DNA of 64,000 bases from a virus: positions 32,001 through 96,000 of IMG/VR virus record IMGVR_UViG_3300022925_000008. One strand, given 5' to 3'. The translations under genes and the position numbers were made by a program. Each line of letters begins with the position of its first letter. The stretch's first letter is position 1. The notes below the pieces were generated by a model that had not been told where the DNA came from, made no database searches, and saw only the letters and a program-made list of their open reading frames with translations. Shown here piece after piece: positions 547 through 63,845 of the stretch.

Positions 547-1223
547 CTTTGAATTTCCTCAACAGCTGCCGTTACATCTGGAAAGTGTGTTTCAAGGATT
601 TCCCAAGCGGTCTTTGCTACGTCCATGTGTTCTTTCTGAGTACCATGGCCCATCCTAAGATCACAATAGTGGATCCACGAGCGAAGAGTGCCGGACATGT
701 ACAACGTAGTCTCGGTCAATCCCTCGGGCAGTAATGCTCGAGCTTGCTCTTTTGCAATGCCAGTGTTTAGTGCCATTTCATAGTAATCTTTGGCGACTCT
801 AGATACTTCGGCTTGCATCTCGCGGAAGACTTCTTGTGCTTTTTTCTGGCGTTCTGCATCATCATCTATTAGACTTAACTGACGATTAGTGGGATGTTGT
901 TTGCGCGCCTCTCGGTTTGTTACAAACGATTCAGAAACCGCATATCGTTGACTAAATTCTTGAAACGAGAACGAACGATGTCGTAGAATCTGCCTAGAGA
1001 TATCACGCGTCGTAGTAATTTCCATTGTAACACTGACCATCTCAAACGGAGACCAGTGCCCCTCTTTGATCAGATAACTAAGGAGTTTTTTAGCAGTTTT
1101 GGTATTATTCTGATTGGCGGGATTACTTACACGCGCTGCGTACGCTATCAACTCAGCGGCATTTTTACATCCAGTAATTGCGCTAGGGGTTGTTATACCT
1201 ACTAAACTAACTTTTGTTGTCAT
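543..1223 (-). CDS. thyX: Flavin-dependent thymidylate synthase ThyX
   Basis: RHRSFSFQEFSQRY ThyX motif, HWSPFE, ARALLP, LRSWIHY; start probably MTTKV at 1223. Confidence 0.95.
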   Translation of the reverse strand: MTTKVSLVGITTPSAITGCKNAAELIAYAARVSNPANQNNTKTAKKLLSYLIKEGHWSPFEMVSVTMEITTTRDISRQILRHRSFSFQEFSQRYAVSESFVTNREARKQHPTNRQLSLIDDDAERQKKAQEVFREMQAEVSRVAKDYYEMALNTGIAKEQARALLPEGLTETTLYMSGTLRSWIHYCDLRMGHGTQKEHMDVAKTAWEILETHFPDVTAAVEEIQS

Positions 1224-9188: not shown

Positions 9189-9190
9189 AA

Positions 9191-9559
9191 TCAATTAGTC
9201 CTATGACTTTTATGTTCAGTTATTTCCGAGTCAGTCAATTTATCTATAATCTTTTTAACTCGTGCTCTTTCGTCGTTAAACATATAGACGCACCTTGCCA
9301 GTTGAACAAACTCCTCATCAAACAACCCGTCGATTTCTTTCGATCTTTTGCCCTCTTCAACATTCCAACAGGCCATGTTGATTGACTTCAATATGTACTT
9401 CAAGTCTTGACCAATCCGGTCAGGCAAATTGCATTTTTCTGCTATGTCTTTGAGTTTATCCAACTCTAAATTAGTGTCGAGTCCATGCTGTCTTTTTATC
9501 TCTAAAATGGTAATTTTATCTAACAACTCACCAACGCTGATTGGTACTTCAATCTTCAT
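9191..9559 (-). CDS. Conserved protein (DUF6165-like), commonly next to sugar genes
   Basis: VPISVGELLDKITILEIK...W.VEE...LAR.VY..ND.RA..K..I. Confidence 0.65.
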   Translation of the reverse strand: MKIEVPISVGELLDKITILEIKRQHGLDTNLELDKLKDIAEKCNLPDRIGQDLKYILKSINMACWNVEEGKRSKEIDGLFDEEFVQLARCVYMFNDERARVKKIIDKLTDSEITEHKSHRTN

Positions 9560-11934: not shown

Positions 11935-12052
11935 ACAACTCGCTTTGTCTCATATTTTCTTTAGGTTTAGGAGAACTAAACCTTTTCTCAGACTTATACT
12001 TATCGTTTCTTTTTTTCTTGTTTCTCACGTCAAACTTTGAATATTTGGCCAT
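11885..12052 (-). CDS. Small basic protein (55 aa)
   Basis: Manual translation MAKYSKFDVRNKKKRNDKYK...; ATGA overlap with upstream stop. Confidence 0.6.
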   Translation of the reverse strand: MAKYSKFDVRNKKKRNDKYKSEKRFSSPKPKENMRQSELYDAEFDLPSLRGRQKV

Positions 12053-12468
12053 CACTTCTTCCAAAACTTTCCTTGTGTTAATTTAATGACTACCGTAAAA
12101 GGGTTGTAATAATATTTAAAGGTCCAATCGTATTGTGCGTAATCTTTTTCATAGTCAATTCTATTAGACCATTTACGTTTCCAATTATCCACATACATTC
12201 CATCATGATAAAGAATGGCGTGACCACCACCATTCACTGTTACAAAACAAACCCTGAACTTTCTTGTCAGTAACATCCACAAAAACTTTAATCTACTTTG
12301 ACCAGCAAGCAACCAAGCAACAGTGAGTGCATAGTCTTCACAATCGCCTTGATCTTTATCAAGACTAACGTCTAACACGCGCCAATAATCTGCTACTTCA
12401 TATTGATCTTTGTCATACTCATACTCAAACAATGAGTTTACTTTTTCTACGGACTTGATCTTATCCAT
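12052..12468 (-). CDS. Transglutaminase-like cysteine peptidase (BTLCP/C93-like)
   Basis: Y..D....DYW, GDCEDYA catalytic Cys motif, GHAIL, VDN. Confidence 0.75.
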   Translation of the reverse strand: MDKIKSVEKVNSLFEYEYDKDQYEVADYWRVLDVSLDKDQGDCEDYALTVAWLLAGQSRLKFLWMLLTRKFRVCFVTVNGGGHAILYHDGMYVDNWKRKWSNRIDYEKDYAQYDWTFKYYYNPFTVVIKLTQGKFWKK

Positions 12469-12469
12469 G

Positions 12470-12613
12470 TTATTTGCCTTGCCCTCTATATTTTTTATAA
12501 TTTGCTTTCTTCTTCTTGTTCATAGAAGACGTGTTGAAGTGTCCTCTGCCAATAGAAGTTCCTTTGGGTTTGTGCTCAACTTTGGTATTACTAGACGATA
12601 ATGCCTTTGCCAT
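12470..12613 (-). CDS. Small basic protein (47 aa)
   Basis: Manual translation MAKALSSSNTKVEHKPKGTSIGRG...KKYRGQGK; overlaps lysozyme stop. Confidence 0.65.
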   Translation of the reverse strand: MAKALSSSNTKVEHKPKGTSIGRGHFNTSSMNKKKKANYKKYRGQGK

Positions 12614-13059
12614 CAGATACTCTCCAACCTAACCATTAGTCGTTCAGCGCGATTGGTCACCTGCTTGTGCCATCGCGAGTCGCGTCCCTCAACTGCGGCT
12701 TCTTTCCAGTCGCCTGCATCGAGTGCAGCGTTGAATTTCTTAAACTTAGACAAACGTGTTCTACCCATGTTGAACATCATGTTGACCACGATCTGTTGGA
12801 CCTCTTCGGGAAAGTTGTCAAACGTCCCTTCGCCGTATAAAGCGTGACACTCACTGATTGAGGTGTCAAGGTCTTTTTCAAAACATTCCCATACTCGTTC
12901 TTCGGAGATTGGTGTTCCGAATTCTTGACCCCATTCGGGATCTTCGTTGATGACAAGGTGCCCCACGCCAAAGGTGTGGTAACCGAGATGGTCTGCATAT
13001 ATTTCATACTTCACACCCTCGTCTACTTTTAGTGTTTCGAAAATTTCTTCACGATTCAT
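12613..13059 (-). CDS. T4-type lysozyme (GH24 muramidase)
   Basis: DEGVKYEIYADHLGYHTFGVGHL (E..D..T triad), VNMMFNMG, F.KF..AL..GDW..AA.E..DSRW.KQV..RA. Confidence 0.92.
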   Translation of the reverse strand: MNREEIFETLKVDEGVKYEIYADHLGYHTFGVGHLVINEDPEWGQEFGTPISEERVWECFEKDLDTSISECHALYGEGTFDNFPEEVQQIVVNMMFNMGRTRLSKFKKFNAALDAGDWKEAAVEGRDSRWHKQVTNRAERLMVRLESI

Positions 13060-13249
13060 TTAATTTCTCCAATGTTGAGAGCAATTCATCGTATTTTGCG
13101 ATTTGCTCTAGTTCTTTTTCTAGCGTTTCCATAAAGTCACCATGTTCCGCCACCCCTACAGGATTATCGAGAAAAGTTTCCCAATTACAAATATGTTTTG
13201 CGCGCTGTCCCTGTAAATACATTTTCATTGCTTCTTTAATAAGAGTCAC
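13049..13249 (-). CDS. Conserved hypothetical protein
   Basis: NPVGVAEHGD motif; operon packing. Confidence 0.6.
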   Translation of the reverse strand: MTLIKEAMKMYLQGQRAKHICNWETFLDNPVGVAEHGDFMETLEKELEQIAKYDELLSTLEKLNES

Positions 13250-47417: not shown

Positions 47418-47639
47418 CTATACATTTTTACTCCTTTTATCAAAATAAATTCTTATAAAATATTTTCTAGCAACTGCTAATGCAAATAATATCGAAGTCA
47501 TGAAAATCGTCATCGATAGTGCAGTCATTTCGATTGATAAACAAAACGCGATTAAAACATAATTCAGAGGAAAATTTACAAAGGTTCCCAAAACCGTGTC
47601 GCTCATCGATTCTTTAAAAGCAATTTTATTGAATTTCAT
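47418..47639 (-). CDS. Small two-TM membrane protein
   Basis: Hydrophobic helices, RKY..R..F. Confidence 0.65.
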   Translation of the reverse strand: MKFNKIAFKESMSDTVLGTFVNFPLNYVLIAFCLSIEMTALSMTIFMTSILFALAVARKYFIRIYFDKRSKNV

Positions 47640-48478
47640 AACGTGCGATAATTTGTTAATAACAATTCCTTTCTATTTCCTTCATCCTCTCTATAGTTTT
47701 TACCAGAATGCATCGTGTATGTTAAATCCCATTGCGTCTGAAACCAATCTTGATACAATTCGCGCAAAACTTCATTAGAGTTGTATGTGATCATTACATT
47801 GCCCATACAATCTTGTGCATGTTCATAAAAAAGATAATGATCAAAATCTGAATGATGTTTGCCTTTCTTACCATACAAGAAAGATTTAATATCGTAGGGG
47901 GGATCAGCAAAAATAAACTCATTTGAAGTACAATCAGCAAGTAGATCTGAGTAGTCGAGATTAGTTATTAACCAATTCTGAATCAACTCTGAATATTGAG
48001 GTAATCGTTCGATGTTAGGATAACCGAAGTTTGATTGAGAGGCAGACTTACTAAATCCTGAAGATTCAGTAAGACCCGAAAAAGAACACTTATTAATAAC
48101 AAAAAAGCAAACAGAAATCCGATGTAGATCGTCAGTATTAGCAATTTCTTCTCGACATGCAAGAAAAAGTTCTTTATGTGGTGTAATTTTATCTTCATAT
48201 GAATCTGCCTCTTTCTTTAATCTAAGTAGTTCATCATACATTGCTTTCGAGTTATTTTGCAACTCTTTCCAGAAGACGTATAGATTGTAATACTTGTCAT
48301 TCACCCAGACTGGTTTCTTGGGAAACCTCTTGGTGAATTCAATGGCAACCGAACCACCGCCAAGAAACGGTTCGCGAAAAGAACGAATTGTTTCTGGAAG
48401 ATTTTGATGCAAGAATAAGAACTTTGTGGCGCGAGACTTACCGCCTGGATAACGTAACGGTGTTTTTAATTTTTTCAT
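47636..48478 (-). CDS. dam: Dam-type (D12 class) DNA N6-adenine methyltransferase
   Basis: LRYPGGKS, EPFLGGGS, F.INKCSFSG, FADPPY. Confidence 0.93.
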   Translation of the reverse strand: MKKLKTPLRYPGGKSRATKFLFLHQNLPETIRSFREPFLGGGSVAIEFTKRFPKKPVWVNDKYYNLYVFWKELQNNSKAMYDELLRLKKEADSYEDKITPHKELFLACREEIANTDDLHRISVCFFVINKCSFSGLTESSGFSKSASQSNFGYPNIERLPQYSELIQNWLITNLDYSDLLADCTSNEFIFADPPYDIKSFLYGKKGKHHSDFDHYLFYEHAQDCMGNVMITYNSNEVLRELYQDWFQTQWDLTYTMHSGKNYREDEGNRKELLLTNYRTL

Positions 48479-48496
48479 GATATAAGTATACTTTAT

Positions 48497-48700
48497 TTAT
48501 TCATCAAAGTCAATGGTTTCGTCGTCAATGGTTAAAGTATACGTTATAGTGTCAATCGATTCCGAGAAATCATAATCATCATCACCGGACCAGTTACTTG
48601 ATTCTAGCATATGGATAAATTCGTCTATAAGAAAACGTTTTCTTTTAAGATGTTCTTCTCTTTTTTTACGAAACTCTTCTATGTAAACAACATCACCCAC
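48497..48700 (-). CDS. Acidic hypothetical protein
   Basis: GGAG RBS; ORF in operon. Confidence 0.55.
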   Translation of the reverse strand: MGDVVYIEEFRKKREEHLKRKRFLIDEFIHMLESSNWSGDDDYDFSESIDTITYTLTIDDETIDFDE

Positions 48701-48710
48701 AATAGTCTCC

Positions 48711-49133
48711 TTATGATAAGAACGTTGGTTCTAAAAGTTCTCGATTCTTCAGATGTTCTTCTTCAATGTCGTCTTTGCTTTGTCCGTGGTAAGCAACTGC
48801 TAAATGATTTTCAATCATTAACTCGTTAACACTACGCCAAGCGTCAGAGTGGGCATCATATACAATGAACTCGCCCAAGATGCGTCCAAATTTACCTTTG
48901 GCATCTTTATGGGTTCTCATGGTGCATTCTTTTCCGAGCATTGTTTTAAGATACTTTCCTGCTGCTTTGCCGTAAATCTTCTCCACTTTATCTCGTGTGC
49001 GAGACTCAGGAGTATCAATCCCGTAAAGGCGAACACGCTGATCAAGATACCATATTCCAAAACCAAGATCAATGTCAACATCGACAGTATCGCCATCAAC
49101 AACTTTTCGTATTTTGCATTTATATTCATGCAT
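48711..49133 (-). CDS. Thermonuclease (SNase-like)
   Basis: VVDGDT.D, RVRLYGIDTPE, K.GRILG, VNE.MI....A. Confidence 0.92.
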   Translation of the reverse strand: MHEYKCKIRKVVDGDTVDVDIDLGFGIWYLDQRVRLYGIDTPESRTRDKVEKIYGKAAGKYLKTMLGKECTMRTHKDAKGKFGRILGEFIVYDAHSDAWRSVNELMIENHLAVAYHGQSKDDIEEEHLKNRELLEPTFLS

Positions 49134-49168
49134 TATTATCACCTCCGTCAATTAAAATTTTATTTTTA

Positions 49169-49594
49169 TTACCCACTGAGAGAAACTCCTTTACCCATCT
49201 TGATCGCGTCCCATTGCTCCGGAGTGACATCATTTAATCGATGGTGCCCAGGAGTGTCTTGTCTATACTTACTATTATACTCAGGATATGGACCATATGC
49301 TGGGTCACGAACATCCGCATTCTCTTCATCGTGAATATACAACTGAATCAGAGTGTAATGCATAATTTTCATAAGGTCTTTTCTAGCATCATGAGCACTA
49401 CCCTTGTTGCCATACCGTTTGGCATACTTGATCACATTGCCCAAGCAAAATCCAGTACCATGCCCACTGTCAATAATAACATCCGTGGCTTGATACTTGT
49501 CGGTTGCGTAGTGTTGGTCGTATGTTTTGTCGACATATTCCTGCAACTCCTTGATAAGTCTATCTTCGTAGAATTTATAATTAACCTTTGTCAT
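49169..49594 (-). CDS. DUF3310-like protein
   Basis: QHY...QATD.I...GFCLGNVIKY..RY..K....DL.K..HY. Confidence 0.8.
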   Translation of the reverse strand: MTKVNYKFYEDRLIKELQEYVDKTYDQHYATDKYQATDVIIDSGHGTGFCLGNVIKYAKRYGNKGSAHDARKDLMKIMHYTLIQLYIHDEENADVRDPAYGPYPEYNSKYRQDTPGHHRLNDVTPEQWDAIKMGKGVSLSG

Positions 49595-50139
49595 AAAGTA
49601 ATCTCTATATGTCGAACAATACTGTTGGTATCTTCGGCGTTATTGTGGTTGTGGGTTTCAACATTTTCCCAAAGAAGAAAGTTCTTTGCAATATTGTTAT
49701 ATTTAGTTTTTCTTCCTTGAATAAATTTCTCGGATTGTACCGAACCTCTATCTTTATATCTCTGCTCGACATCTTCTGATTCTAGTATCATAACGTGCAA
49801 CTCGGTGTCAGGCAAATCGAGGCAGGTCTCTAGAAGAGATGCAGTGAACAGCCTATCACCTTCAAAGATAATTGATGCATCGGTTTTTGTAATAAATTCT
49901 ATCGCCTTGGGTTGAACTGCCATGCTCAATTTATCTGTTCCCTGAGCATAACCTTCTACGTCATACCAAGGGGCATACTTACCAAACACATAACAGTTTC
50001 TTGATTTTGAATAGACGCCATCTAACAATTCTACTGGTTTGGCGGGTTGCCAATCTAATGCAAGTTTATCTAATACATTTTTAACTAAGGTTGTTTTGCC
50101 AGTTCCTGGTATACCACCAATTGCAAATATATGTCTCAT
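49591..50139 (-). CDS. P-loop kinase of base-modification loci
   Basis: GGIPGTGKT Walker A, GKY....GTD.LSM.VQP, FEGDRL. Confidence 0.8.
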   Translation of the reverse strand: MRHIFAIGGIPGTGKTTLVKNVLDKLALDWQPAKPVELLDGVYSKSRNCYVFGKYAPWYDVEGYAQGTDKLSMAVQPKAIEFITKTDASIIFEGDRLFTASLLETCLDLPDTELHVMILESEDVEQRYKDRGSVQSEKFIQGRKTKYNNIAKNFLLWENVETHNHNNAEDTNSIVRHIEITL

Positions 50140-51476
50140 GAAAAAAACTCCTCAAGCGAAGAAGATTGTTTTTGCGGGTGGTACTTATTCAACATCTCTT
50201 CGCCACCATTCTTGCGTAAATACTCAAACCATTCAGGTTTGTCCCACATAGAAGGCGAAACACCATTCCACAATGGGCGGTGCATTGGATGAGTTTGATC
50301 TTTACTTCTGTCGGTAACAAATTGTCTACGAATTGATTCATATTCCCAACTACCCAATTCTAGCATTTTTTCTCGAAAATAGCAAACAAGAGAAATACGT
50401 TCCATATCTTCCAGTTTTTTCCCAGAGGGAGGAACCAGTTCTGTGTTACCGTGTATGCCATCGTGGTTATTGATCAGCAACAAATCGCCTGGACGTATGT
50501 TAATAGCGACCCGATATTCTGGCAGAACTAGGTATCCCCCCTCCCACTCCTTATCTTTCGCAATCACTGACAGGTTGGAGAATCCTGCGTGGAGATCACC
50601 AGCGTCACGGTGAGCAGAGGTGCGAAAGTTTTTGTTCACCGTAATTGTGGTGAACGGAGTATCCTCGCCAGCGACTCTGAACCTGGGGTCAAGTTTCGCT
50701 GCTGCTTCATTCTGTACACCATACCGTTCGGGCAAGAGTCGCTGAAACTCACTCGAGAGTTTGCGCATGAACGGATAACACTTCTCGTAAGTCTCACGAT
50801 GGTGTTCAGTATATGAAGTAGCGCGACCCCATGGGATGCGAGGATATCGATCAAAAAACCCAGCTATACCAGAGAGTACCTGATTAGCATAGGTTGTATT
50901 TGATACATAGTTATCAAAGAGATCTTTTGCTGCTTGGGGTTGTAGATGATTTGGTAAAGCAAGGATCTCTTTTAATTTTGTTTCGAAGAAAGTTTCGTAG
51001 TTATAACCATCCTTTTCTATTTTAGATTTAATCCAAACGATCCCTCTTGGATCTTTTGGCGTTTCATAAGATGCGTGTCTTTTTTTAATTTCTTCGATTG
51101 GGTCTTCTGTTCTTCCGAACAAAGTTGTCTGCTCTCCATTAACGAGATATTCCATAATCTCAATCTGGGACTCATCGCACCAATTACGCCCACCTTGCCT
51201 TTCGCCTTTTGGTCCAGCAGCAAGTCCACGGTTCTGTGTAGGTTGTGCTGCGTTAACAAGACCTTCGTAAGCACATTCTTGCTCTTCTGGAGTAAAACGA
51301 TTCTTACGAAACATAAAAATGCATTCTTTCTCAGAAGGTTCGGTGCGGCCAATTTCGGAGATGGGTGCATAAAAATCCATATCTTCTTCAACTAAAAGGT
51401 CATAATCAGATTCATCCATATACTTACCAAGTTTATCTTCGCAGTTATGTTTAAATTTGGAGATAATCGTTTTCAT
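50136..51476 (-). CDS. TET/JBP-family 2OG-Fe(II) dioxygenase
   Basis: FTTITVN.NF.T..HRDAGD (HxD), IHGNT (distal H), RISLVCY.RE. Confidence 0.85.
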   Translation of the reverse strand: MKTIISKFKHNCEDKLGKYMDESDYDLLVEEDMDFYAPISEIGRTEPSEKECIFMFRKNRFTPEEQECAYEGLVNAAQPTQNRGLAAGPKGERQGGRNWCDESQIEIMEYLVNGEQTTLFGRTEDPIEEIKKRHASYETPKDPRGIVWIKSKIEKDGYNYETFFETKLKEILALPNHLQPQAAKDLFDNYVSNTTYANQVLSGIAGFFDRYPRIPWGRATSYTEHHRETYEKCYPFMRKLSSEFQRLLPERYGVQNEAAAKLDPRFRVAGEDTPFTTITVNKNFRTSAHRDAGDLHAGFSNLSVIAKDKEWEGGYLVLPEYRVAINIRPGDLLLINNHDGIHGNTELVPPSGKKLEDMERISLVCYFREKMLELGSWEYESIRRQFVTDRSKDQTHPMHRPLWNGVSPSMWDKPEWFEYLRKNGGEEMLNKYHPQKQSSSLEEFFS

Positions 51477-52438
51477 ACCATAAATTCCTCTAGTCCGGTA
51501 GATACCTGTTCAAAGTTACCAGTATCTAAGTACCATTCCATTTTATACTTTTTTATTTCATTAGTCAACCATTGTTTTTCAATGGTCTCTTCTCTTGCTT
51601 GCCACAAAGGTTTCCAGTCAATGCCATCCCAACCGTCTTGTTCCACCTTCTTAATTTCCTCTGCTTGCCTGTCAAGGTAATACCCAAGGTAACGCCCACG
51701 ACTTTTACGAAACAACTTCTTAAAGGAGCAGAGGCACGTCTCCATTGCGAAAAAGTCTGCTTTCTCGGCGACGTGAGGATATTGTAGTTTAACCTCTTGA
51801 AGTATTTCTTTCGCTTCTGATTCTAGATATGCAACCTGTTCTTTGTCCAGCTTCTTATCCACCCATTCGTCTTTACCAATGGCATAACACATACCATTAC
51901 GATGAGAGCGAGAACCGCTATGATCGTGGAACCAAAGACTATCAACATCTATATTGATATCACAACATTGTTTCAGCGTTTGCATATAAAACCAAGAAGT
52001 ATATCTTCCAAACTTATGCCAAGAGTTTACTTCTTTCCAAAGTTTGTAGAAGTTATCCACTGGATTGTCGGTAAAGTCTTTGGTGAGTGCCTCGCGTTGA
52101 GTTCGTTCACCGACCCAATCTTTATAAGAAAGAAACTGGGCAGGTAAATGCCCCTTGTTCCATTTGGTGTCCGTCTGGTAACGCAATCGTTTGTAGTTCT
52201 CGTTATTCCAATTCTCAAGTCTTTCCACACCAACCAAATGCATATCAGGAAACTCGTTCCATATTATATATGCAGTCGGCCAGTAGTAAGTATTACCGTA
52301 TAACCAAGACAACCAGAGTCGTTGCTCTTTGTTATACTCGAATCGATCAAAGAAATAATTCGTCATATACAGAGACGAGTCGCAGTCTTCAATCTCAAGA
52401 CTGCGCCCGAACCACCGTATAAAAGTATCAGTTGACAT
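51473..52438 (-). CDS. Amino-acid:DNA transferase / aGPT-pyrophosphorylase-like protein
   Basis: WLYG.TY, KFGRY..W.Y...L, S.S.RNG, ETCLC.FKK; adjacent to kinase and dioxygenase. Confidence 0.7.
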   Translation of the reverse strand: MSTDTFIRWFGRSLEIEDCDSSLYMTNYFFDRFEYNKEQRLWLSWLYGNTYYWPTAYIIWNEFPDMHLVGVERLENWNNENYKRLRYQTDTKWNKGHLPAQFLSYKDWVGERTQREALTKDFTDNPVDNFYKLWKEVNSWHKFGRYTSWFYMQTLKQCCDINIDVDSLWFHDHSGSRSHRNGMCYAIGKDEWVDKKLDKEQVAYLESEAKEILQEVKLQYPHVAEKADFFAMETCLCSFKKLFRKSRGRYLGYYLDRQAEEIKKVEQDGWDGIDWKPLWQAREETIEKQWLTNEIKKYKMEWYLDTGNFEQVSTGLEEFMV

Positions 52439-53757
52439 TAAGACTCTGAACTAAACGGGAGAACTTCAATCGTAACGTCTAGTCCCCAGTATTTCAAGAA
52501 CTCTTCATTCTCGCGAATAAGATCATCCTCTCGAACCTTAACGATTTGCGACTTGCTTGTATAATGAATTATGATAGCACCTTTATTCCAACCAGTCTGT
52601 TTCATGTGTCTCATAATATAAGCACAAGCATGACCATAAGACAGTTTGTCAGCAGTAGCAGTAACACAAGCGATACCATGCTGTTCATAGTCTATGTATT
52701 TCTTCTTCGTAAGTTCACCATCTGTGTAGGTAATCAAATTGCCTTTGATTAATCGTTCGTTCGCTTCACGAGTTTTCATCGTAATAAACGACTTGAACGT
52801 TCCGTTGAATGCTACTTTGGTAGGAATAATTCCAGACGTCAAGAAATAATCAGTCAAAAGAACTTTAACATATTCCTTTGCTGATTCATTCGTAGGATCA
52901 AAGTTTGGGAGTTTCTCAGAAACAATGCGATCAAACTGCATTTTGAGGTCGTTCTGAGAGTTTTTTCCACGGAAGGTGTCGCTTTCTCGGTTAAGACCTG
53001 AACCAAGTAGTTCTTGCACAACTGGAAGATCACTAGGATCATTAGTTAGATCTGTCCACGGAACAAAGATGGTAGAAACTTCATTCCATCGTGCCCAATC
53101 AGCAGCAGTAAGTCTAGTATTGCCATCATTAACACAATGGCTACCGTCAGGCATAACAACTACGACGATCGGAGAAAACTTTTCCCTAGCACCTTCTGGG
53201 TTTTCGTTCATATAGTCTCTGATTTTAGTTGCAGTTGCTATATTCGTTAGCACAACTCTAACCTGTTTACGAGAATATGAAAGAACAGTATCTATAGGTG
53301 TCATCACAACAGGATAAAACCCTTCTTCAATGCATTTTATGACATTTTGTGTACGCGCAGATGTTTCTGAGATGGTAGGAGTAAAATCTTCAAAGTCATC
53401 TTCAGCAATAAAATTGATTACATTCTTCATGATATCCGGATCGACTCGCCCATCACCTTTATGTGCACTGTTAACTACATTGTAGAAGTTATCAGGACAT
53501 TCAGAGAGTCCATAGTCGAGTGCCATCCACTCAGCAGAAGTAGTCATAGAGACAGAAGGTCGTGCTAAGATAAAACGGTCAATATGACCAGCGCGATAAT
53601 CATCCCAAAACTCGTTATCATGACCTAAAGATGTTACGTAAGTTAGAGGTTCACCAGCAACTTTAGAACCAATTACCTTTTTACCATTTACTCGGTTCTT
53701 CAAACCATAGAGAATACCATAGTCTGTACCGAAAATTTTAGTTTGTTCAACGTTCAT
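52438..53757 (-). CDS. GIY-YIG-like N-terminus fused to ParB/Srx-like domain
   Basis: YGILYGLKNRVNGKKVIGSK...YVTS; PIVVV...VNDGNTRL.AA; own early promoter. Confidence 0.55.
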   Translation of the reverse strand: MNVEQTKIFGTDYGILYGLKNRVNGKKVIGSKVAGEPLTYVTSLGHDNEFWDDYRAGHIDRFILARPSVSMTTSAEWMALDYGLSECPDNFYNVVNSAHKGDGRVDPDIMKNVINFIAEDDFEDFTPTISETSARTQNVIKCIEEGFYPVVMTPIDTVLSYSRKQVRVVLTNIATATKIRDYMNENPEGAREKFSPIVVVVMPDGSHCVNDGNTRLTAADWARWNEVSTIFVPWTDLTNDPSDLPVVQELLGSGLNRESDTFRGKNSQNDLKMQFDRIVSEKLPNFDPTNESAKEYVKVLLTDYFLTSGIIPTKVAFNGTFKSFITMKTREANERLIKGNLITYTDGELTKKKYIDYEQHGIACVTATADKLSYGHACAYIMRHMKQTGWNKGAIIIHYTSKSQIVKVREDDLIRENEEFLKYWGLDVTIEVLPFSSES

Positions 53758-53820
53758 ATTTTTTTCCTTAATTAATAAAGTGATTTATTTTGACCCACCT
53801 CAATGGCGGATACGAAAAGA

Positions 53821-53869
53821 ATTATACTCTATTTTTTTAAGAAAGTAAAGTTTATGTAAGTAATTGATT
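53821..53869 (-). promoter_or_regulatory. Early promoter with IHF-like site
   Basis: AATCAATTACTTA - 30 nt - TATAAT, overlapping GNAT stop. Confidence 0.75.
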
Positions 53870-54388
53870 TTGTTCAGTTTTTTTGTAAGAAGAAGCAAGA
53901 GAACCTTTTCTACCGGAGTAAAGTGCCTTGCGGATGATGGGGTCTTTGTTATAGTAGACGCCTTCTGAATAAGTCGAACCACCGATCTTGAAGATCGATA
54001 GACTGGCGCCACTTTTCTGTTTGCCCCAGAAAAAGAACCCGCATTTCTCATAGAAGGCCACAGCATCAGGTTCTGCAGAAACGCGGAAATACAATGCTTT
54101 GTTTTCTATAGCGTAACTTAAAGAATAATCAGTTAACATTCTACCCACACCCTTGCCGCGATGTTTATTAAAAGTGTGCAACAACTGCAGGTTGGCGACT
54201 TTGGGTTCTCGTTTAGAGATAGTCGTTATGATAGCGCCCAATAATTCATCGTTTTCCCACGCTCCCACGCAAAACTCCCATTGTTTCTGCATATTTGCTT
54301 TGGCAACAAAGGTTTTGGCAAATTTGTCTGCAGGATCTTCGGTAATACAAGAACGAAATTCTTCTAAAGTGCAACTACGCAACTTCAT
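53852..54388 (-). CDS. GNAT-family N-acetyltransferase
   Basis: HRGKGVGRML acetyl-CoA motif A; AV.FYEKCGF. Confidence 0.88.
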   Translation of the reverse strand: MKLRSCTLEEFRSCITEDPADKFAKTFVAKANMQKQWEFCVGAWENDELLGAIITTISKREPKVANLQLLHTFNKHRGKGVGRMLTDYSLSYAIENKALYFRVSAEPDAVAFYEKCGFFFWGKQKSGASLSIFKIGGSTYSEGVYYNKDPIIRKALYSGRKGSLASSYKKTEQNQLLT

Positions 54389-55265
54389 TATATACCCTTA
54401 CCTTGGTACCTCTACCTTGAATTCCTCTTTCTTTGGCATATTTGGTTTTTAACCACCCAGCATATTCTTCTAAGTTCCACACAAAGGGAGGAAAGGTATA
54501 ATCATGCATGAATAAAAGTTCTGAAACTGATGGACCATCGTTCAATGCAGCATCAATAAAATCAAGGGCGAATCTAAATTGTGATTCTACCTCTGCACGT
54601 TTTGTAGTAGAGCGAAAACAACGAAACTCAATAGTTCCAGTATGCTTCATACAATATGTGTTGATCGCATAACGAAACGGACGACCCATTGACACTCCGT
54701 CTTTGCCAGCAGCGTGCAGTTTAATAAAATGGTTGAAGTCCGTGGCAAGATTAATAATGTTGTTGCTCATATATTCTGGCATTTGTCGACCACCATCATA
54801 TTTAAGATACATCTTGGCACCCCTGGTTAATTTCATTTCATGATGATCATAGAATCCATAACACGCTTCGACAGTATCTTCTTGATTTTCCGCCACATAT
54901 GCTATTAGTTTTTTGAGAGCTGTAATATCATCTTTCAACCCAGGAACAAATACATGAAGGTGTCCATGATTGACAACGCTTGCTGTCGGAGTATCGCCAT
55001 GAGCAACAAATAGATCATGCAGTTCCATTACACGGTCTGCTTGTTCTTGCCATGTTTTGGTAGGTTTTGTATTAATCTCTCCACCATAAGGAGGAGATTC
55101 TCCGAGAGGATCACACGCCACATACTGGTATGGGGGATTGAGATTTAAAATGTCGGTCTCAGAATATTCCCAACTCCCCAGATGTTCTGGTATTTCTAAC
55201 CTACGATCAATATCACCCCACTCAATTTCGTAACCCCACGTAAAATCATTCTTATCAAAACTCAT
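54375..55265 (-). CDS. Amidoligase (COOH-NH2 ligase, glutamate-cysteine-ligase fold)
   Basis: TWGYEIEW, GGEIN, HGHLHV, TIEFR. Confidence 0.8.
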   Translation of the reverse strand: MSFDKNDFTWGYEIEWGDIDRRLEIPEHLGSWEYSETDILNLNPPYQYVACDPLGESPPYGGEINTKPTKTWQEQADRVMELHDLFVAHGDTPTASVVNHGHLHVFVPGLKDDITALKKLIAYVAENQEDTVEACYGFYDHHEMKLTRGAKMYLKYDGGRQMPEYMSNNIINLATDFNHFIKLHAAGKDGVSMGRPFRYAINTYCMKHTGTIEFRCFRSTTKRAEVESQFRFALDFIDAALNDGPSVSELLFMHDYTFPPFVWNLEEYAGWLKTKYAKERGIQGRGTKVRVYNEVA

Positions 55266-55948
55266 TGCAAATCCTCAAAAATATGTTTTATGTTAAATGG
55301 CACAGTACAATCGTATATTTTCATTTGATCTTTTTCAACAACATAATTATGTAACTGATCAGTTTTATGTATATCCCTTAATCCTGCGCGTCTTGCAACG
55401 TCTGCAGTAGACGTAAATATGATACCCCTTTCGTGCATACTATACCAGAGTGGACGTTCATGGTTACGAAAGGCAGTCAACGAATTGTTCTTACTGTTAA
55501 GTGCACAGACCGCCATGCTTGCGGTAGGAAAGTCAATGAATGGGTGTGAATCGTTTTCTAGACTTCTCAATATCAACTCAGAGTCATTATTAGTTTCACA
55601 CTTGTACAACCAGTTTACTTTTGGTTCTTGAGAAACAACGCCGTTGTGTGATATTGAGATATTTTCGGCAGCGAGGGGTTGGGGATATTTTAGATCAGAC
55701 GTAGAGTATCTTGTATGACCTATCATGTACAGATTGCCGTTGCTATGAATTGCATCAAAGAGATCAAACTTCTGGAAGAATTCTTCGGCGGGGATACGGT
55801 CTTTAACTGTTACCAAACCACTTTCGGTAATATATGAAAGTCCGGTCGAATGTTTTCCGCGGATTTGAGATTCATAGAATAAATTTTCAACTAGAGCGAG
55901 ATCCTCTTCTTGGACATTTTTCAAATAAATTCCCAAAACTCCGCACAT
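55262..55948 (-). CDS. Class II (Ntn) glutamine amidotransferase
   Basis: N-terminal MCGV, IRG..STG, GHTRYST, HNG, NDSE. Confidence 0.88.
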   Translation of the reverse strand: MCGVLGIYLKNVQEEDLALVENLFYESQIRGKHSTGLSYITESGLVTVKDRIPAEEFFQKFDLFDAIHSNGNLYMIGHTRYSTSDLKYPQPLAAENISISHNGVVSQEPKVNWLYKCETNNDSELILRSLENDSHPFIDFPTASMAVCALNSKNNSLTAFRNHERPLWYSMHERGIIFTSTADVARRAGLRDIHKTDQLHNYVVEKDQMKIYDCTVPFNIKHIFEDLQ

Positions 55949-56109
55949 CAATTATCTCTCTCATCTTTTTTTACAAGGTAAGTTATATTATGCCCTATTA
56001 TACTAGAATTGTCAAGGCATTTCCCACATTTCGTTCCAACTTTGTTTATCAAAAAAGGTTCTTTATCCAGCATCTTCTCAGTTATGGCATTACAAATGCA
56101 AATGTACAT
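55948..56109 (-). CDS. Bfd-like [2Fe-2S] mini-ferredoxin (53 aa)
   Basis: Not in ORF track; MYICICNAITEKML...VGTKCGKC matches Bfd CxC...GxxCxxC pattern. Confidence 0.7.
   Translation of the reverse strand: MYICICNAITEKMLDKEPFLINKVGTKCGKCLDNSSIIGHNITYLVKKDERDN
55987..56015 (-). promoter_or_regulatory. sigma70 promoter for the modification operon
   Basis: TTGACA-17 nt-CATAAT inside the Bfd-like ORF. Confidence 0.6.
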
Positions 56110-57709: not shown

Positions 57710-59095
57710 CTAGAAAATTTTAATAGAACTGAGTTTTTCCCCAGATACCCTCCTTCCAGCGTCGCTATTATCAAACACAGGCCCAGTGTCTTGGACAAGG
57801 TCTTGCGTAGCATTATCAATGTCATACAGTCTCATTTTAGATCGATCAACCCCAATACAAAAACGTTTATTTGAATTGGGATCGTTATATCGATTCTTCA
57901 ATTGTTTAACCATAATTTGATTGAGTCCTTCAAGTTCTTCGTTTGATACTAAAGCGAACATAAGATCCGCAGTCGCCGGTAAACCGAACGATTCAGAAGT
58001 ATCCTCAAGTCCAGGGTCAGAGTTACCAAATCCACTTCTTGTGGTTTGGGTCGCTGACATGATAGGGACATTAAACTCTACCGCCAATCCTCTCATCTCT
58101 TCGGCGATAGCCTTAATGTATGAGTAAGAATTAATTACACCGCCCATTCCCTTCATTCTTGAAGATGCACATATATTTAGATAATCTATGAAAATTATTT
58201 CTGGTTTAAATGATTTTTTTAATTTTAGTTCGTTAAGCAATGCACGGAAATGACTAGTATGCGCAGCACCAGTAGGGTATTCTTTAACAATAAGTTTACC
58301 TTTGGTTTTTGCTGCTATCTTACCAACCCGATCTCTGAATGTTTGTTTAGACATATGATCTAAAGAACCAATCGGCACGTTCATCAAATTTGCATCAATC
58401 CTCTCGGCGATACGTTCTTCGGCCATTTCCATTGTTATGTAAAGAACGTTATGACCAAGGGAAAGGCAACTGGCAGCATGATGACACATAAAGAGACTTT
58501 TACCCACGCCTGTACCAGCCAGTGCGATGTTCAGAGTCTTATTGGGAAGACCACCTTTGGTGATGGTGTTAAGGTATTCCAAATCAAAGGGAATACGGTC
58601 TTCTTGCTCATGATAAAAGTCGTATCGCTCATCTACATTTTCTAAATAGTCATGTCCAACATTAGTGTCAAAACAGACTGCCAGTGCCTCTGTTAACACA
58701 TCAGGAATTGCATTTTTAGACAATTTCTGATGCTTGCCATCAATTATCTGGATTGATTCCATGATGGCATTATACACCGCACGGTCTTGACACCACTTCT
58801 CAGTTGTGTCTAATAACCATTCACTGTCTTCTTTCTTTGCCTGAAAAATATCAGGAAGAATGTCGATAGCGTGGGTGTACATTTCTGGATTAAGACCGAC
58901 TTCATCAATCTCAATCTTAAACGCTTCGAGGGATGGAAGTTTATTATATTTGGAAACAAACTTCACTACCTGATTAAATAACTCACGGTAGATACCCTCA
59001 AAATAGTCTTTCTTAACAAACGGTAGAACCTTTCGCATAAAAGGTTCGTTGGTTAAAATGTTTCTTAAGATAGTTTTTTCTAAATCAATGTTCAT
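57710..59095 (-). CDS. 41: T4 gp41-type replicative helicase
   Basis: AGTGVGKS, YITMEM.EE, IFIDYLNI, SATQTTR, SESFGLPATAD, KQLKNRY. Confidence 0.96.
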   Translation of the reverse strand: MNIDLEKTILRNILTNEPFMRKVLPFVKKDYFEGIYRELFNQVVKFVSKYNKLPSLEAFKIEIDEVGLNPEMYTHAIDILPDIFQAKKEDSEWLLDTTEKWCQDRAVYNAIMESIQIIDGKHQKLSKNAIPDVLTEALAVCFDTNVGHDYLENVDERYDFYHEQEDRIPFDLEYLNTITKGGLPNKTLNIALAGTGVGKSLFMCHHAASCLSLGHNVLYITMEMAEERIAERIDANLMNVPIGSLDHMSKQTFRDRVGKIAAKTKGKLIVKEYPTGAAHTSHFRALLNELKLKKSFKPEIIFIDYLNICASSRMKGMGGVINSYSYIKAIAEEMRGLAVEFNVPIMSATQTTRSGFGNSDPGLEDTSESFGLPATADLMFALVSNEELEGLNQIMVKQLKNRYNDPNSNKRFCIGVDRSKMRLYDIDNATQDLVQDTGPVFDNSDAGRRVSGEKLSSIKIF

Positions 59096-59387
59096 TAATG
59101 TCCTTGGTCGCGAGTGATCCATTTCCTGCTGCTTCATCTAGAACAGTTTCTAGAATAGATCCCACAAATTCTTGAAGTTCAACATTACTAACTGAAAGAG
59201 AATCGTCAGGAGAATATATTATTGTAAAGTTAAAATTCAAACATTTCAAGGGGCCATTAAAAGAAATATTACCAAATCGGATAATAGTTTCAACAAAATC
59301 CCCTTTTAAGATTCTTATATCCCAACCCTGCGAATTATCATCGTCTGTTGGTATAAGTTCAAAATCTATTCCTTCGTGAAAACTCAT
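59085..59387 (-). CDS. Conserved protein at the T4 gp40 position
   Basis: Synteny uvsX - X - gp41. Confidence 0.5.
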   Translation of the reverse strand: MSFHEGIDFELIPTDDDNSQGWDIRILKGDFVETIIRFGNISFNGPLKCLNFNFTIIYSPDDSLSVSNVELQEFVGSILETVLDEAAGNGSLATKDINEH

Positions 59388-60412: not shown

Positions 60413-61354
60413 TTAATTCCTGTATATAAATTCAATTGCACCATTTGCTTCAATCTCTAATGGTCTATTATCATACCACTTTCCTGTATCATTATCAAGC
60501 TCTCTACACATATCCGCGATTTCTTTCGGGGAAATGGGATATTCTGCTTTAATAGCATTTGCTGCTATCGCCACCATAATTTGGTACATTTTAGAATACC
60601 ATCCTGTTCCGGTGATTGACATATATTCTTGTGCCAAACGTTTGGGGAAGAAAGGGCAGTCTCGATAAGATGTCCAGTGTACATCTATATTTTGTGACTG
60701 TTCTTTCCTATAAGAAACAACCTGTTCTCTAAGCGCTGACGGCAGACGGTCAAGGAACGAGCTAGACTTTGCCGTTTGATATTCCCAAGCACTCATTAAG
60801 TCGTCAGGATTTATATGACGACCTTCGTTTTTAAAGAAAAAATTGAAAGCATTTGGGTATTCTGCTGGCACATAATACATCCTCGATAAATCTTTAGTCT
60901 GTTTATCTCCAATACCTTTCAGTTGTTTATTCAAAGCGAACCAGAAGTGAGGTATTTCTTCTGAGGTTATTTCTCGAGTCATCGGAAACACCAAACGAAA
61001 CTTGGGGGTAATGGGCGTACTACTAGCAGTAGAATAACACACAAACTGATATTGACCACAGATTTGTTGAAGTGTAGGTTCTAAGACGCTAGGCACAATA
61101 CCAAAATCATCAAAGTCGTCCACATCAACAGCAGCCCAACTGCCCCAACAAGTAACGTTTTTATTAGACCGAGTGCTGGATTCAATATAACGAGCAGGAC
61201 TAATAAGAGGAGAAGAATTGTTTCCACCTTTTTCACCATTTTTCTTTGATAAATTTAAAAGCATCTTCTCAAACTCATTCCAAGTTTCAAAAGATAATAC
61301 GCGGTGCGTTTTATTGTCGAAAGCGTTTTTGAATAAAGTAAGCGAATACATCAT
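60413..61354 (-). CDS. Primase-polymerase (AEP/PrimPol)-like protein
   Basis: AVDVDD (DxD), YSTASS...KFRLVFP..R, DLSR.YY.P; helical C-terminal domain. Confidence 0.65.
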   Translation of the reverse strand: MMYSLTLFKNAFDNKTHRVLSFETWNEFEKMLLNLSKKNGEKGGNNSSPLISPARYIESSTRSNKNVTCWGSWAAVDVDDFDDFGIVPSVLEPTLQQICGQYQFVCYSTASSTPITPKFRLVFPMTREITSEEIPHFWFALNKQLKGIGDKQTKDLSRMYYVPAEYPNAFNFFFKNEGRHINPDDLMSAWEYQTAKSSSFLDRLPSALREQVVSYRKEQSQNIDVHWTSYRDCPFFPKRLAQEYMSITGTGWYSKMYQIMVAIAANAIKAEYPISPKEIADMCRELDNDTGKWYDNRPLEIEANGAIEFIYRN

Positions 61355-61409: not shown

Positions 61410-63845
61410 CTAGAAATAATCATCAAGGGTTGCTTTTGGTTCATCTTCCCATCCTATAGCTTCTAGGATAGGTTTGAGTGGATCTAAAAAACTTTTGTCA
61501 TACATTGTATCATAATCAACGTAACGGTGCAGTTTAAGTTCTGTTGGTAGTCTTTCGGGGAAAGAAATAATATTCTCTCTGATGTGGTTGGGGGTTTTGA
61601 GATAAAGATATTTAATCTTTGTACCATCATCAATCATTTCGTATTTTTTCTCGATCCCTTCTTTCTTGACGTGGTAATTATATAGTAATGCACCACGAGA
61701 ATGCATTGGTGTGCCCTTACCATAAATCATTTGGCGGTCTTGGTATTTCTTTATCGCTCTTACTGTACGGGGAAATGCTATTTTTTCTGGTTCAAGTGTT
61801 CTGAATTCTGACCGAAAATCTCGAATAAATTTCTGAGCATCTTTTTCTTGACCATTTAGCAAAACATTAAAAACTTCTTTAAACTTATCGCGACAGATCT
61901 GAGGCGTCGAAGATTTTATTGCTTCAATCCCCATAATCTTGAGCTTGGGTTCATCGTACTGTACACCTTCTGAATTATGCACCTGAAGAATGTATCGTTT
62001 CTTGGCAGTCCAGATACCACGATCAGCGATTACCTCTCGCTTCATTACCATTCTATTCTCATAGGCATTGGTTTCAATTGCTTGATACTTGTACGCGCTG
62101 GCAATTGTTTTCTCGAAATGCTCACAAACATGGTCAAGAAATTTGACGGGGTTGGCGGGGCGATGCTCTTTAACCAAATCGTTCATATTGATATATACTG
62201 AATCAGTATCAATGGCAATGACGTAATCTTTCTTAGTACCGAGCAGAGTTTGTAACTCATCGTTTACTGCTTTCTCGGCACACAATATTGCCCGTTGACC
62301 CGAGGTAGTAATCGCCTCAGCGATCTTAAGATCAAAATATCTAAAGTATTGATTAGCGAGTGCACCATAAAGAGAGTTCATAAGAATCTTCACTGCCATC
62401 TGAGTATTATCTTGAATGGTCACTTCGTTGGCAAGTCGTTTGGTGGGGTTCTTGTTATATTCTTTCTGTGCGTCGAGCATTTTATTTTTGGCGGTCACTC
62501 GATCACCATAAAACTTTTTGATTACCTTCGGTATGATACCTTCAATATCTTTTCGGTAACGACTACCGTTTGCCGCCATTGTGAAGTCGCCTTCTTCCTC
62601 GTATGTAAGGGTCTCTGGTGACATGTTATACTGCACAATAATATTAGGATAAAGAGAATTCAAATCAAAAGAACAAACCCATTCATGCATACCAATCTGA
62701 GGTTCTTTGACATATCCGCCAACGATATTCTCTTTCTCTTTATATTCTTTGGGCGGAACAATGATATTTTCTTTTAGGAGTTCATTGTAAATAACAGAGT
62801 CCCATATAGTCGTTGTTCCAAACGCATCATTATAATTACATTTTGCTTTGTACGCCATAGTCATAGCGAGAGTAATCAATCCCATTTTCTCTTCAAGGCG
62901 ATCAACAAGTTCAACATCTTTAATGTTATAGTCAATAAACTTCTGATGGTCTTCGCGATATAGGTTATGCAAATTACCAAATTCTTCGTAAGATAATTTA
63001 TTTTCGCCAAGAACCTGATATGCAATATGGTCCAATTTGAATGATTCTTGTTGCCCGTAAGTTAACACACCAAATTTTTGAAATAGATCATAGTAGTCTA
63101 AACTGGCAATGCCTTCAATTTCATAAGTGATTGCGTCTTGCCCCATGCGAGTGTGAAACTTACGTTCCTTAACCAAACCCCATGGCGAAAGTTTCTTGAC
63201 GCAATCATTACCTAACAAACTACCAATGCGGTTCACTAGATATGGAATGTCAAACAATTTTGTATTCCACCCAGTTATGACGTCAGGGCAGTTCTCGTGT
63301 GTTGCCCACCAGTCAGTAAACTTTAGAAGCAAATCAACCTCGGAAGTTGCCTGATAATATGCCACTGTTTTGTCAGAAAGGGTGTTATCATATTCACCCA
63401 GACCCCACACGTAGAAAGTGTCAGAAAGATTAGACTTGCAACCAATTGCGGTAACTTCGTGCTTTGCTTCTTCTGGGTTTGGAAACCCCTGATCAGATTG
63501 AACCTCGATATCAACGCTCATCACATTAATCTTATCTCGGTCAAACTTTATTTCGTATGGGTATTTCTCTGCCAAATATTGTGTGACAAAATTAGTCATA
63601 CCATATATGGTAAAGTTTGTCACGTCTTGATAACGCTTGATAAAATCAGACGCTTCTCTGAGAGAGTCAAACTCTACGGGTTCAACCATATTCCCATAAA
63701 GGGATTTGTATTTACCGTTCGCTTTGGGCGTTTCAATAAACAGTTTGGGTTTGAATGGGATTTTCTGGGAAATTTTTTTGCCGTCTTTATATCCTCGAAA
63801 AAGAATATTATTTCCTACGCGGCACACATTGGTATAAAAATTCAT
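61410..63845 (-). CDS. 43: T4 gp43-type family B DNA polymerase
   Basis: DIE exonuclease I, GWN..FD.PY, SFDLNSLYP, K..MNSLYG, DTDS, KKRY. Confidence 0.98.
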   Translation of the reverse strand: MNFYTNVCRVGNNILFRGYKDGKKISQKIPFKPKLFIETPKANGKYKSLYGNMVEPVEFDSLREASDFIKRYQDVTNFTIYGMTNFVTQYLAEKYPYEIKFDRDKINVMSVDIEVQSDQGFPNPEEAKHEVTAIGCKSNLSDTFYVWGLGEYDNTLSDKTVAYYQATSEVDLLLKFTDWWATHENCPDVITGWNTKLFDIPYLVNRIGSLLGNDCVKKLSPWGLVKERKFHTRMGQDAITYEIEGIASLDYYDLFQKFGVLTYGQQESFKLDHIAYQVLGENKLSYEEFGNLHNLYREDHQKFIDYNIKDVELVDRLEEKMGLITLAMTMAYKAKCNYNDAFGTTTIWDSVIYNELLKENIIVPPKEYKEKENIVGGYVKEPQIGMHEWVCSFDLNSLYPNIIVQYNMSPETLTYEEEGDFTMAANGSRYRKDIEGIIPKVIKKFYGDRVTAKNKMLDAQKEYNKNPTKRLANEVTIQDNTQMAVKILMNSLYGALANQYFRYFDLKIAEAITTSGQRAILCAEKAVNDELQTLLGTKKDYVIAIDTDSVYINMNDLVKEHRPANPVKFLDHVCEHFEKTIASAYKYQAIETNAYENRMVMKREVIADRGIWTAKKRYILQVHNSEGVQYDEPKLKIMGIEAIKSSTPQICRDKFKEVFNVLLNGQEKDAQKFIRDFRSEFRTLEPEKIAFPRTVRAIKKYQDRQMIYGKGTPMHSRGALLYNYHVKKEGIEKKYEMIDDGTKIKYLYLKTPNHIRENIISFPERLPTELKLHRYVDYDTMYDKSFLDPLKPILEAIGWEDEPKATLDDYF

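Follow-up and report, generated by a model that had tools for sequence, protein, structure and literature searches.

A conserved six-gene module predicted to hypermodify thymidine after replication in an aquatic T4-like phage

This study concerns a gene cluster in a 64,000-nucleotide stretch of viral DNA (the window), which corresponds to bases 32001-96000 of the 131,197-bp IMG/VR virus record IMGVR_UViG_3300022925_000008, a record that is ~73% complete. The cluster encodes a glutamine amidotransferase (GATase), an amidoligase, a GNAT acetyltransferase, an amino-acid:DNA transferase (AADT), a TET/JBP dioxygenase (hereafter TET) and a P-loop kinase. It is likely to constitute a pathway in which thymidine is hypermodified in DNA after replication. 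The six-enzyme cluster spans 49591-55948 on the minus strand, and its catalytic motifs are all intact. In the direction of transcription, the genes are ordered as GATase, a 296-amino-acid (aa) amidoligase, GNAT, a 439-aa gene, AADT, TET and kinase, followed by DUF3310, SNase and Dam (Table 1). Every long open reading frame (ORF) between 47636 and 55951 lies on the minus strand, and overlaps of 1-14 bp link most neighbouring genes, with the surroundings of the 439-aa gene as the exception. A first-pass annotation of this DNA had described the genes as co-oriented and overlapping, and the ORF map and the Pfam scan agree with that layout and with its domain calls; the TET_JBP, ADDT and P-loop kinase profiles all score above their cut-offs (87, 88 and 31 bits, respectively).

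The flanking genes form a T4-type replication set (uvsX, gp41 helicase and gp43), and the nearest relatives of the helicase are found in phage C48C1 (Kyanoviridae, 68%), Methylophilales Melnitz phages and cyanomyophages. This places the phage among the aquatic T4-like myoviruses. Megablast gave no match for the region among 50,697 phage records.

Table 1. Coordinates of the features discussed, with the basis of each assignment.
Feature	Coordinates	Strand	Basis
Stand-alone class-II N-terminal nucleophile (Ntn) glutamine amidotransferase, ~228 aa	55262..55948	-	PF13522 (GATase_6) 36.5 bits, cut-off 27
Divergent Amidoligase_2 (glutamine synthetase-like carboxylate-amine ligase), 296 aa	54375..55265	-	Pfam matches of homologues, motifs, atlas
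GNAT acetyltransferase, 178 aa	53852..54388	-	PF13673 53 bits
GIY-YIG-like N-domain + ParB/Srx-fold domain (DGNTR) + helical/alpha-beta C-terminal part, 439 aa	52438..53757	-	Profile and model
Amino-acid:DNA transferase (AADT/ADDT), ViI type, 321 aa	51473..52438	-	PF18724 88 bits, cut-off 26.2
AADT tail TGLEEFMV, candidate clamp-binding motif	51476..51499	-	Likeness to gp43/gp55 tails, conservation
TET/JBP-family Fe(II)/2-oxoglutarate (2OG) dioxygenase, 446 aa	50136..51476	-	PF12851 87.1 bits, gathering cut-off 34.9
TET tail SSLEEFFS, candidate gp45 sliding-clamp-binding motif	50139..50162	-	Likeness to gp43/gp55 tails, conservation
P-loop kinase (Ploopntkinase3), candidate 5-hydroxymethyldeoxyuridine (5-hmdU) DNA kinase, 182 aa	49591..50139	-	PF18751 31 bits, cut-off 27
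DUF3310, SNase, D12 Dam, co-oriented neighbours	47636..49594	-	Pfam, all above cut-off
Sigma-70-like promoter match upstream of the GATase gene	55987..56015	-	TTGACA-17-CATAAT, 11/12 consensus matches
53-aa ORF (MYICICN...CGKC) directly upstream of GATase, overlapping the GATase start	55948-56109	-	
ThyX (context)	579..1166	-	PF02511 151.8 bits
gp43 DNA polymerase (context)	61410..63845	-	ORF translation; ends KATLDDYF

The first gene of the module encodes the GATase. Its ORF runs from 55951 to 55262, and the likeliest start is the ATG at 55948, which yields a protein beginning with MCGVLG and carrying the invariant Ntn Cys. M1-C2, R30-G31, N102-G103 and D122 are invariant among 13 orthologues. 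The next gene encodes the 296-aa protein, which scores only 15 bits (E=0.023) against Amidoligase_2, under the gathering cut-off of 22. Its amidoligase assignment was nevertheless right, since PF12224 is matched by 49 of the 73 full-length homologues (best 3.7e-13) and the ligase signature is kept. Within the family, G11, E13, E15, G61, E63, R198, E213 and R215 are invariant and H102 and H104 are near-invariant, which conserves the ligase motifs GxExE, GGE, HxH and ExR, and in a protein atlas the neighbours of the 296-aa protein are amidoligases (0.98). phmmer searches of the PDB with the single 296-aa and 439-aa sequences returned nothing useful, and a profile of the 296-aa family found only one spurious match there. 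The GNAT gene lies directly downstream of the amidoligase gene in ~78 of the related loci described below.

Natural fusions join the amidoligase to several other enzymes of the module. P0223 is a GATase-amidoligase fusion, the GATase half of which aligns with the window GATase. P0137 combines amidoligase, GNAT and 5-hmdU DNA kinase (HMUDK); P0150 and P0175 are amidoligase-HMUD2 kinase fusions, and P0153 joins GNAT, amidoligase and HMUD2. Because of these fusions, the amidoligase is functionally tied to the GATase, the GNAT and a DNA kinase, and the fusions therefore weigh against an unrelated amidoligase substrate such as peptidoglycan. The fusions, together with the invariant residue set of the GATase, point to a concrete and testable role for the two proteins, which would form a split glutamine-dependent amide synthetase working with the kinase, AADT and GNAT. 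A DLQ triplet is strictly conserved near the C-terminus of the GATase, and in P0223 it falls at the junction of the two halves; it may therefore mark the end of the GATase that docks towards the amidoligase. In P0252 and P0275, amidoligase homologues are fused to a TET-associated glycosyltransferase, and one of them also carries a low-molecular-weight phosphatase domain. These two fusions hint at further hypermodification chemistries that may use the same ligase.

The TET dioxygenase keeps its catalytic residues. The iron triad H289-x-D291 and H342 and the 2OG-binding R360 are invariant in 28 sequences. Its AlphaFold2 (AF2) model, with a predicted local distance difference test score (pLDDT) of 82.6, has CcTet, TET2 and NgTET1 as best Foldseek matches (E ~4e-9), with a TET-type double-stranded beta-helix. 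The record carries ThyX, with which the phage is predicted to make ordinary dTMP. A C5-methyltransferase (PF00145) and a ThyA-type enzyme (PF00303, the family of dUMP/dCMP hydroxymethylases) were not found in the whole 131-kb record, and a complete 168-kb relative likewise lacks both. Therefore, thymine in DNA is the likely substrate, and the enzyme is probably a thymine dioxygenase. The first-pass annotation had seen no C5-methyltransferase in the window and had proposed that ThyX plus a TET/JBP enzyme stand in for hydroxymethylation at the nucleotide level; the wider search extends the first observation and is in line with the second. Thymine dioxygenases of phages have been demonstrated, and phage 5mYOXs oxidise thymine after replication (PMC13229309).

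The kinase and the AADT are predicted to belong to the thymidine pathway known from other phages, in which the chemistry of both enzymes, as well as that of a DNA-acting GNAT, is established (PMC8989533). The kinase has a Walker A motif (GIPGTGKTT). It matches phrog_800 (8.4e-12), which is labelled 'terminase small subunit' in PHROG, and the GenBank label of M6 gp54 is the same, a comparison of labels only. In the AADT, C237 is invariant and E233 near-invariant, with the homologues of PhaxI and Cr30 included; Lee et al. (2021) showed that the Cys and Glu of AADT are essential (PMC8989533). Identity between the window AADT and its PhaxI homologue is 28% (E=3e-34), and the latter, a protein of an Ackermannviridae phage, is taken to be the orthologue of ViI gp247, a serine:DNA transferase. 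A comparison of the window enzyme with M6 gp51, a glycine:DNA transferase, gives E=1.9, and only an ETxLC motif is shared, with no overall similarity. The amino acid attached by the window enzyme is thus most likely serine, coupled through its hydroxyl group, if the sequence relationship is a guide. In the cultured Caulobacter phage Cr30 (L003), homologues of TET (39%), AADT (31%) and kinase (38%) lie close together at 7998-13161, and no amidoligase, GATase or GNAT match was found in the 17.3-kb stretch examined. Cr30 is a possible simpler cultured model for a TET-fed thymidine pathway.

The module is conserved as a set. A search of IMG/VR with the amidoligase found 195 stretches that encode a relative, and the best 80 were kept as loci. 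Virtually every locus of sufficient length to be assessed holds all six genes (TET, GATase, amidoligase, GNAT, AADT and kinase). The gene order is shuffled across loci and the membership is constant; the commonest order is TET-GATase-amidoligase-GNAT-(slot)-AADT-kinase, and the order of the window, with TET between AADT and kinase, is also seen in L009 and L080. The complete 168-kb relative, which has terminal repeats, carries the full module. Amidoligase relatives form 697 metagenome protein clusters and have 291 representatives in a 50%-identity library. Judging by these clusters and the 195 IMG/VR stretches, the module is highly prevalent among T4-like phages from the environment.

The 439-aa gene occupies the slot between GNAT and AADT and had at first been labelled an insert. 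It proves to encode a GIY-YIG-like and ParB-fold protein and is not a random insertion. The window protein has no Pfam match. In an alignment of 25 relatives, Y17, G30, E76 and N93 of the GIY-YIG-like N-domain are invariant, and a central block reads PIxV...DGN(H/T)(T/R)..AA; ParB_N is matched by 13 of these 25 and SegE_GIY-YIG, weakly, by 3. The family profile matches Noc/ParB in the PDB (1.6e-4), and the AF2 model (pLDDT 86.8) has Noc, CcParB, MxParB, KorB and Srx (sulfiredoxin) as best Foldseek matches. Across the loci, the slot takes three forms: it is empty, with a gap of 8-138 bp; it holds a family member that is 19-45% identical to the window copy; or it holds other genes, of ~190 or ~500 aa. 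The alternative genes have no Pfam matches. By hhalign, the two ~500-aa slot proteins tested share only the DGNTR stretch with the ParB family (probability <=5%), and the 192-aa slot protein of L028 lacks a match to it; the 481-aa slot protein of L076 belongs to the 439-aa family.

Two explanations of this gene were weighed. Judged from its distribution, it is a presumed optional mobile cassette and no core enzyme. Freestanding homing-endonuclease cassettes in T4-like phages come and go in the same presence/absence fashion. The alternative is a non-selfish role, in which the ParB-fold protein activates the thymine dioxygenase as happens in 5mYOX systems of the ParB-dependent subclass. O'Toole et al. 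(2026) found that ParB homologues activate the dioxygenase, and the ParB N-domain fold of the window protein is nearest to MxParB and CcParB, as reported for the 5mYOX-associated ParBs (PMC13229309). The gene also occurs in 48 of ~80 loci inside or beside the module, which speaks for such a role; sometimes it lies upstream of TET or elsewhere. A ParB-fold neighbour of the dioxygenase is therefore present, but the partnership is not consistent. The family is missing from the complete 168-kb relative with the full module, and its presence on a maximum-likelihood TET tree of 45 rows needs 11-13 gains or losses, close to the value for shuffled labels. Unrelated genes occupy the same slot in some relatives, and the additional GIY-YIG-like domain, with its invariant Glu and Asn, also argues against an activator. 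In addition, the module DNA of L011 and L014 is ~90% identical, and the difference is a clean 1334-bp insertion with the gene and its own promoter-like site. A complex prediction of TET with the 439-aa protein scored 0.00, which gives no verdict and counts neither way. Together, these data make an activator role unlikely, and it cannot be obligatory in this lineage.

The TET and AADT share a further feature, which lies at their extreme C-termini. TET ends in ...SSSLEEFFS and AADT in ...STGLEEFMV; the DNA polymerase gp43 ends in ...KATLDDYF, and the late sigma factor gp55 in ...DSDLSEFLVG. The pattern L[DE][DE][FY] within the last 10 residues is found in only 3 of the 598 ORFs of the record, namely gp43, TET and AADT. 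A looser pattern is found in 6 of 421 ORFs, which adds gp55 and two unknowns; a 274-aa ORF at 10317-11141 (minus strand), ending in ...DVILGAFGW, is one of these six. The gp45 clamp gene is present in the record, at 99889-100560. In the TET model, residues 439-446 have a pLDDT below 50 and are disordered. The tails of the relatives keep the pattern, with almost all TETs ending in [ST]LE[GDEA][FM]F, AADTs in GLExF or GLEALW, and most GNATs in DLNSFL, GLSNFF or TLSEFL. In two relatives, gp43 ends in ASLEDFF and the TETs in SLEGFF or SLEAFF. The TETs of cultured phages share the tail as well (ATLGDFFV in DLP_6 and ISLEEFFV in C48C1), and the clamp idea can be tested at the bench with them.

The sliding clamp of T4 is bound by interchangeable epitopes, the short acidic/hydrophobic C-termini of gp43, gp55 and gp33 (PMC2988020). 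The tails described here resemble them: each is a short motif of acidic and hydrophobic residues that sits on a flexible linker at the very end of the protein, with gp43 TLDDYF and gp55 DLSEFLVG close to TET SLEEFF and AADT GLEEFM. They differ in their bearer: no DNA base-modifying enzyme with such a tail was found in the searchable literature, where a text search combining sliding clamp, hypermodification and dioxygenase gave no report of clamp-tethered modification enzymes. On this resemblance, TET and AADT, and in most relatives also GNAT, are tentatively regarded as putative clients of the gp45 sliding clamp, a proposal that falls somewhat short of probable. If it is true, tethering to the clamp would explain how a multi-step post-replicative pathway covers the whole genome before packaging, and the polymerase-like tails would offer a mechanism that couples base modification to replication.

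From the gene families, their motifs, the conserved module, the fusions and the tails, we infer the chemical steps, their order (that of amidation and acetylation included), the amino acid, the binding to the clamp and the placement of the tailoring on DNA rather than on a free donor. In the first step, TET/JBP would hydroxylate thymine in DNA to 5-hydroxymethyluracil (5hmU). The P-loop kinase would then phosphorylate the hydroxymethyl group to give phospho-5hmU. In the third step, the ViI-type AADT, using Cys237 and Glu233, would displace the phosphate and attach an amino acid, which would produce O-seryl (or N-glycyl) thymidine. The GATase and Amidoligase_2 proteins, as one split amide synthetase, would next convert the free carboxylate of the adduct to a carboxamide, and the GNAT would finally acetylate the free amine. 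TET and AADT, and in most relatives GNAT too, would be recruited to DNA by gp45 via their polymerase-like tails. This succession, in which T is oxidised, activated, coupled, amidated and acetylated, was proposed in the first-pass annotation, and it is the best-supported reading on the domains, the absences, the AADT Cys/Glu pair and the fusions, although its newness was overstated. An ATP-dependent amide ligation on a DNA-borne carboxylate has been shown for CmoY, and a glutamine-dependent version has been predicted (PMC12783734).

The end product can be named with considerable doubt only. It would be N-acetyl-O-serinamide-thymidine, 5-[(N-acetyl-serinamide-O-yl)methyl]-deoxyuridine (dU), with the formula C15H22N4O8 and a mass of 386.14 Da; the product of a glycine route would be 356.13 Da. 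The broader statement, that hypermodification enzymes act as gp45 clients directly behind the fork and that the product is an N-acetyl, C-amide thymine adduct, is a possible one that we rank below the pathway itself and above this exact structure. The prediction of a base that matches no described one has stood, as the predicted product is indeed undescribed.

Several observations weigh against this scheme or parts of it. The source record is a metagenome contig with the incomplete coverage given above. The kinase is only weakly similar to the proven 5-HMUDK M6 gp54 (BLASTP E=0.006, 23% identity over 99 aa), and a 28% identity to the ViI-type AADT leaves the amino acid unfixed. The three tailoring enzymes (amidoligase, GATase and GNAT) could have a free donor as substrate, ahead of its transfer to DNA. 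For the clamp, the tail motif was defined after it had been seen on TET and AADT, and gp43 and gp55 then matched as predicted. The kinase, GATase and amidoligase have no such tail anywhere; these proteins and the helicase have other conserved ends. The window GNAT also lacks the tail and ends in ...EQNQLLT. The cassette with the 439-aa gene begins right at the GNAT stop, with its promoter-like site at 53849-53821, and because of this position, its insertion may have altered the C-terminus of the window GNAT.

The free-donor possibility forms a rival explanation of the tailoring. The amidoligase, GATase and GNAT would build a free amine or amide donor, such as an amino-acid amide or an N-acetylated diamine, and the AADT would transfer this donor onto phospho-5hmU. 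AADTs take varied free nucleophiles (Gly, Ser and putrescine), and the PhiW-14 enzyme transfers free putrescine (PMC8989533). Fusions reveal functional linkage and not the order of steps, and the clamp-like tail of TET and AADT is missing from the kinase, amidoligase and GATase. In contrast, the fusion partners of the amidoligase include 5-hmdU kinases, which act on DNA, the PaMx11 GNAT and CmoY act on groups borne by DNA (PMC8989533, PMC12783734), and the GNAT has a clamp-like tail in most relatives. These points make assembly of a free donor improbable, and tailoring on DNA is preferred.

Another way to read the same enzymes is that the amidoligase adds a second amino acid or amine through a peptide-like bond, with the GATase-like protein serving as an Ntn hydrolase or as a supplier of something other than ammonia; the base would then be larger. 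Amidoligase_2 enzymes are generic COOH-NH2 ligases, and CmoY couples glycine to a carboxylate carried by DNA (PMC12783734), which speaks for such an extension. The natural GATase-amidoligase fusion and the invariance of the complete glutamine-hydrolysing residue set fit a glutamine-dependent amidotransferase instead, and we judge an extension of the adduct to be quite improbable. Least of all would the cluster make a cytosine hypermodification from 5-methylcytosine (5mC): phage TETs of clades A and B do oxidise 5mC and some contigs with a C5-methyltransferase and a TET also carry P-loop kinases (PMC8256090), but that methyltransferase is absent from the record and the complete relative and accompanies only 6% of phage 5mYOX pathways (PMC13229309), and the neighbouring enzymes belong to the thymidine pathway, which makes the cytosine route very improbable.

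The surroundings of the module add little to it. The sigma-70-like promoter reported at 55987 in the first-pass annotation is present as a match, but such sites occur near chance frequency in the region (34 observed against 28.2 +/- 4.7 in shuffled sequence), and this one lies inside the 53-aa ORF. That ORF was considered as a module member and rejected; it has a weak Pfam score against BFD-like [2Fe-2S] (20.9 bits, cut-off 26) and is kept only in the 93%-identical relative L004. The DUF3310, SNase and Dam genes, earlier counted in the cluster, do not accompany the module in related loci, apart from L044, where a Dam gene lies upstream of it; they are not conserved as cluster members. The helicase is separated from the cluster by genes for a cell-wall hydrolase and a cytidylyltransferase-like protein. 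The gp41-type helicase itself (57710-59137, minus strand) ends in SSIKIF, and its relatives keep the C-terminal motif GFKF, which may be a partner-binding tail separate from the clamp motif. A 313-aa ORF lies between gp43 and uvsX at 60413-61354 (minus strand).

Thymidine hypermodifications shield phage DNA against nucleases, those of restriction systems included, and supply novel enzymes and DNA chemistry. The pathway at this locus is not new as a prediction, since it is already in print (PMC8989533, PMC13229309). Lee et al. (2021) described contigs from IMG/VR and GOV2 that carry 5-HMUDK, aGPT-Pplase2, amidoligase and glutaminotransferase, the latter two without known function, and a contig group in which TET_JBP replaces the dUMP hydroxymethylase (PMC8989533). 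O'Toole et al. (2026) linked clade C1 5mYOX to GATases, P-loop kinases and AADTs (PMC13229309). The clusters of these two studies (sequences 22-25 in Fig. 2 of Lee et al. and clade C1 of O'Toole et al.) share TET_JBP, P-loop kinase, AADT, GATase, amidoligase, GNAT and ParB with the present one; they also come from IMG/VR and were predicted to hypermodify T after replication. They differ in that the function of the amidoligase and GATase and the product were left open. The 5mYOXs of O'Toole et al. have their last conserved residue near 280 (C280 in 5mYOX176) and are apparently much shorter than the 446-aa TET of the window, and their ParBs were described without a GIY-YIG domain.

Among the phages with known bases, Salmonella phage ViI makes 5-NeOmdU with the 5-HMUDK gp67/gp243, the serine:DNA transferase gp247 and the pyridoxal phosphate (PLP) decarboxylase gp226. 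The window and ViI both pair a kinase with an AADT from one Pfam family in which the catalytic Cys/Glu is kept, and in both the base would be activated and then substituted. ViI obtains its 5hmU from a dUMP hydroxymethylase that works on nucleotides, whereas the window has a TET/JBP enzyme for DNA; the window also lacks a PLP decarboxylase, and its tailoring would be carried out by amidoligase plus GATase and by GNAT instead. Pseudomonas phage PaMx11 makes 5-AcNmdU with a kinase, a glycine:DNA transferase, a flavin adenine dinucleotide (FAD) lyase and a GNAT. Its GNAT acetylates the amine of a thymidine adduct in DNA, as proposed here. Its AADT is of the M6 type, to which the window AADT has no overall similarity in the comparison with M6 gp51; the window has no FAD enzyme, and PaMx11 has no TET, amidoligase or GATase. 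The CmoX/CmoY system of Synechococcus phage S-B43, which converts 5cxmC to 5cxmC-glycine amide, resembles the window in its ATP-dependent amide ligase acting on a base-borne carboxylate, and the carboxamide is the predicted product of a sister cluster that has a glutamine-hydrolysing domain of AsnB type. In contrast, CmoY is an asparagine-synthetase-type (AMP-forming) ligase and not an Amidoligase_2 protein, and a Cx-SAM transferase provides the handle, on cytosine. To these systems, the window adds a conserved and abundant T4-like example, fusion evidence for a split amide synthetase, a putative mobile ParB-fold cassette and the observation of clamp-like tails.

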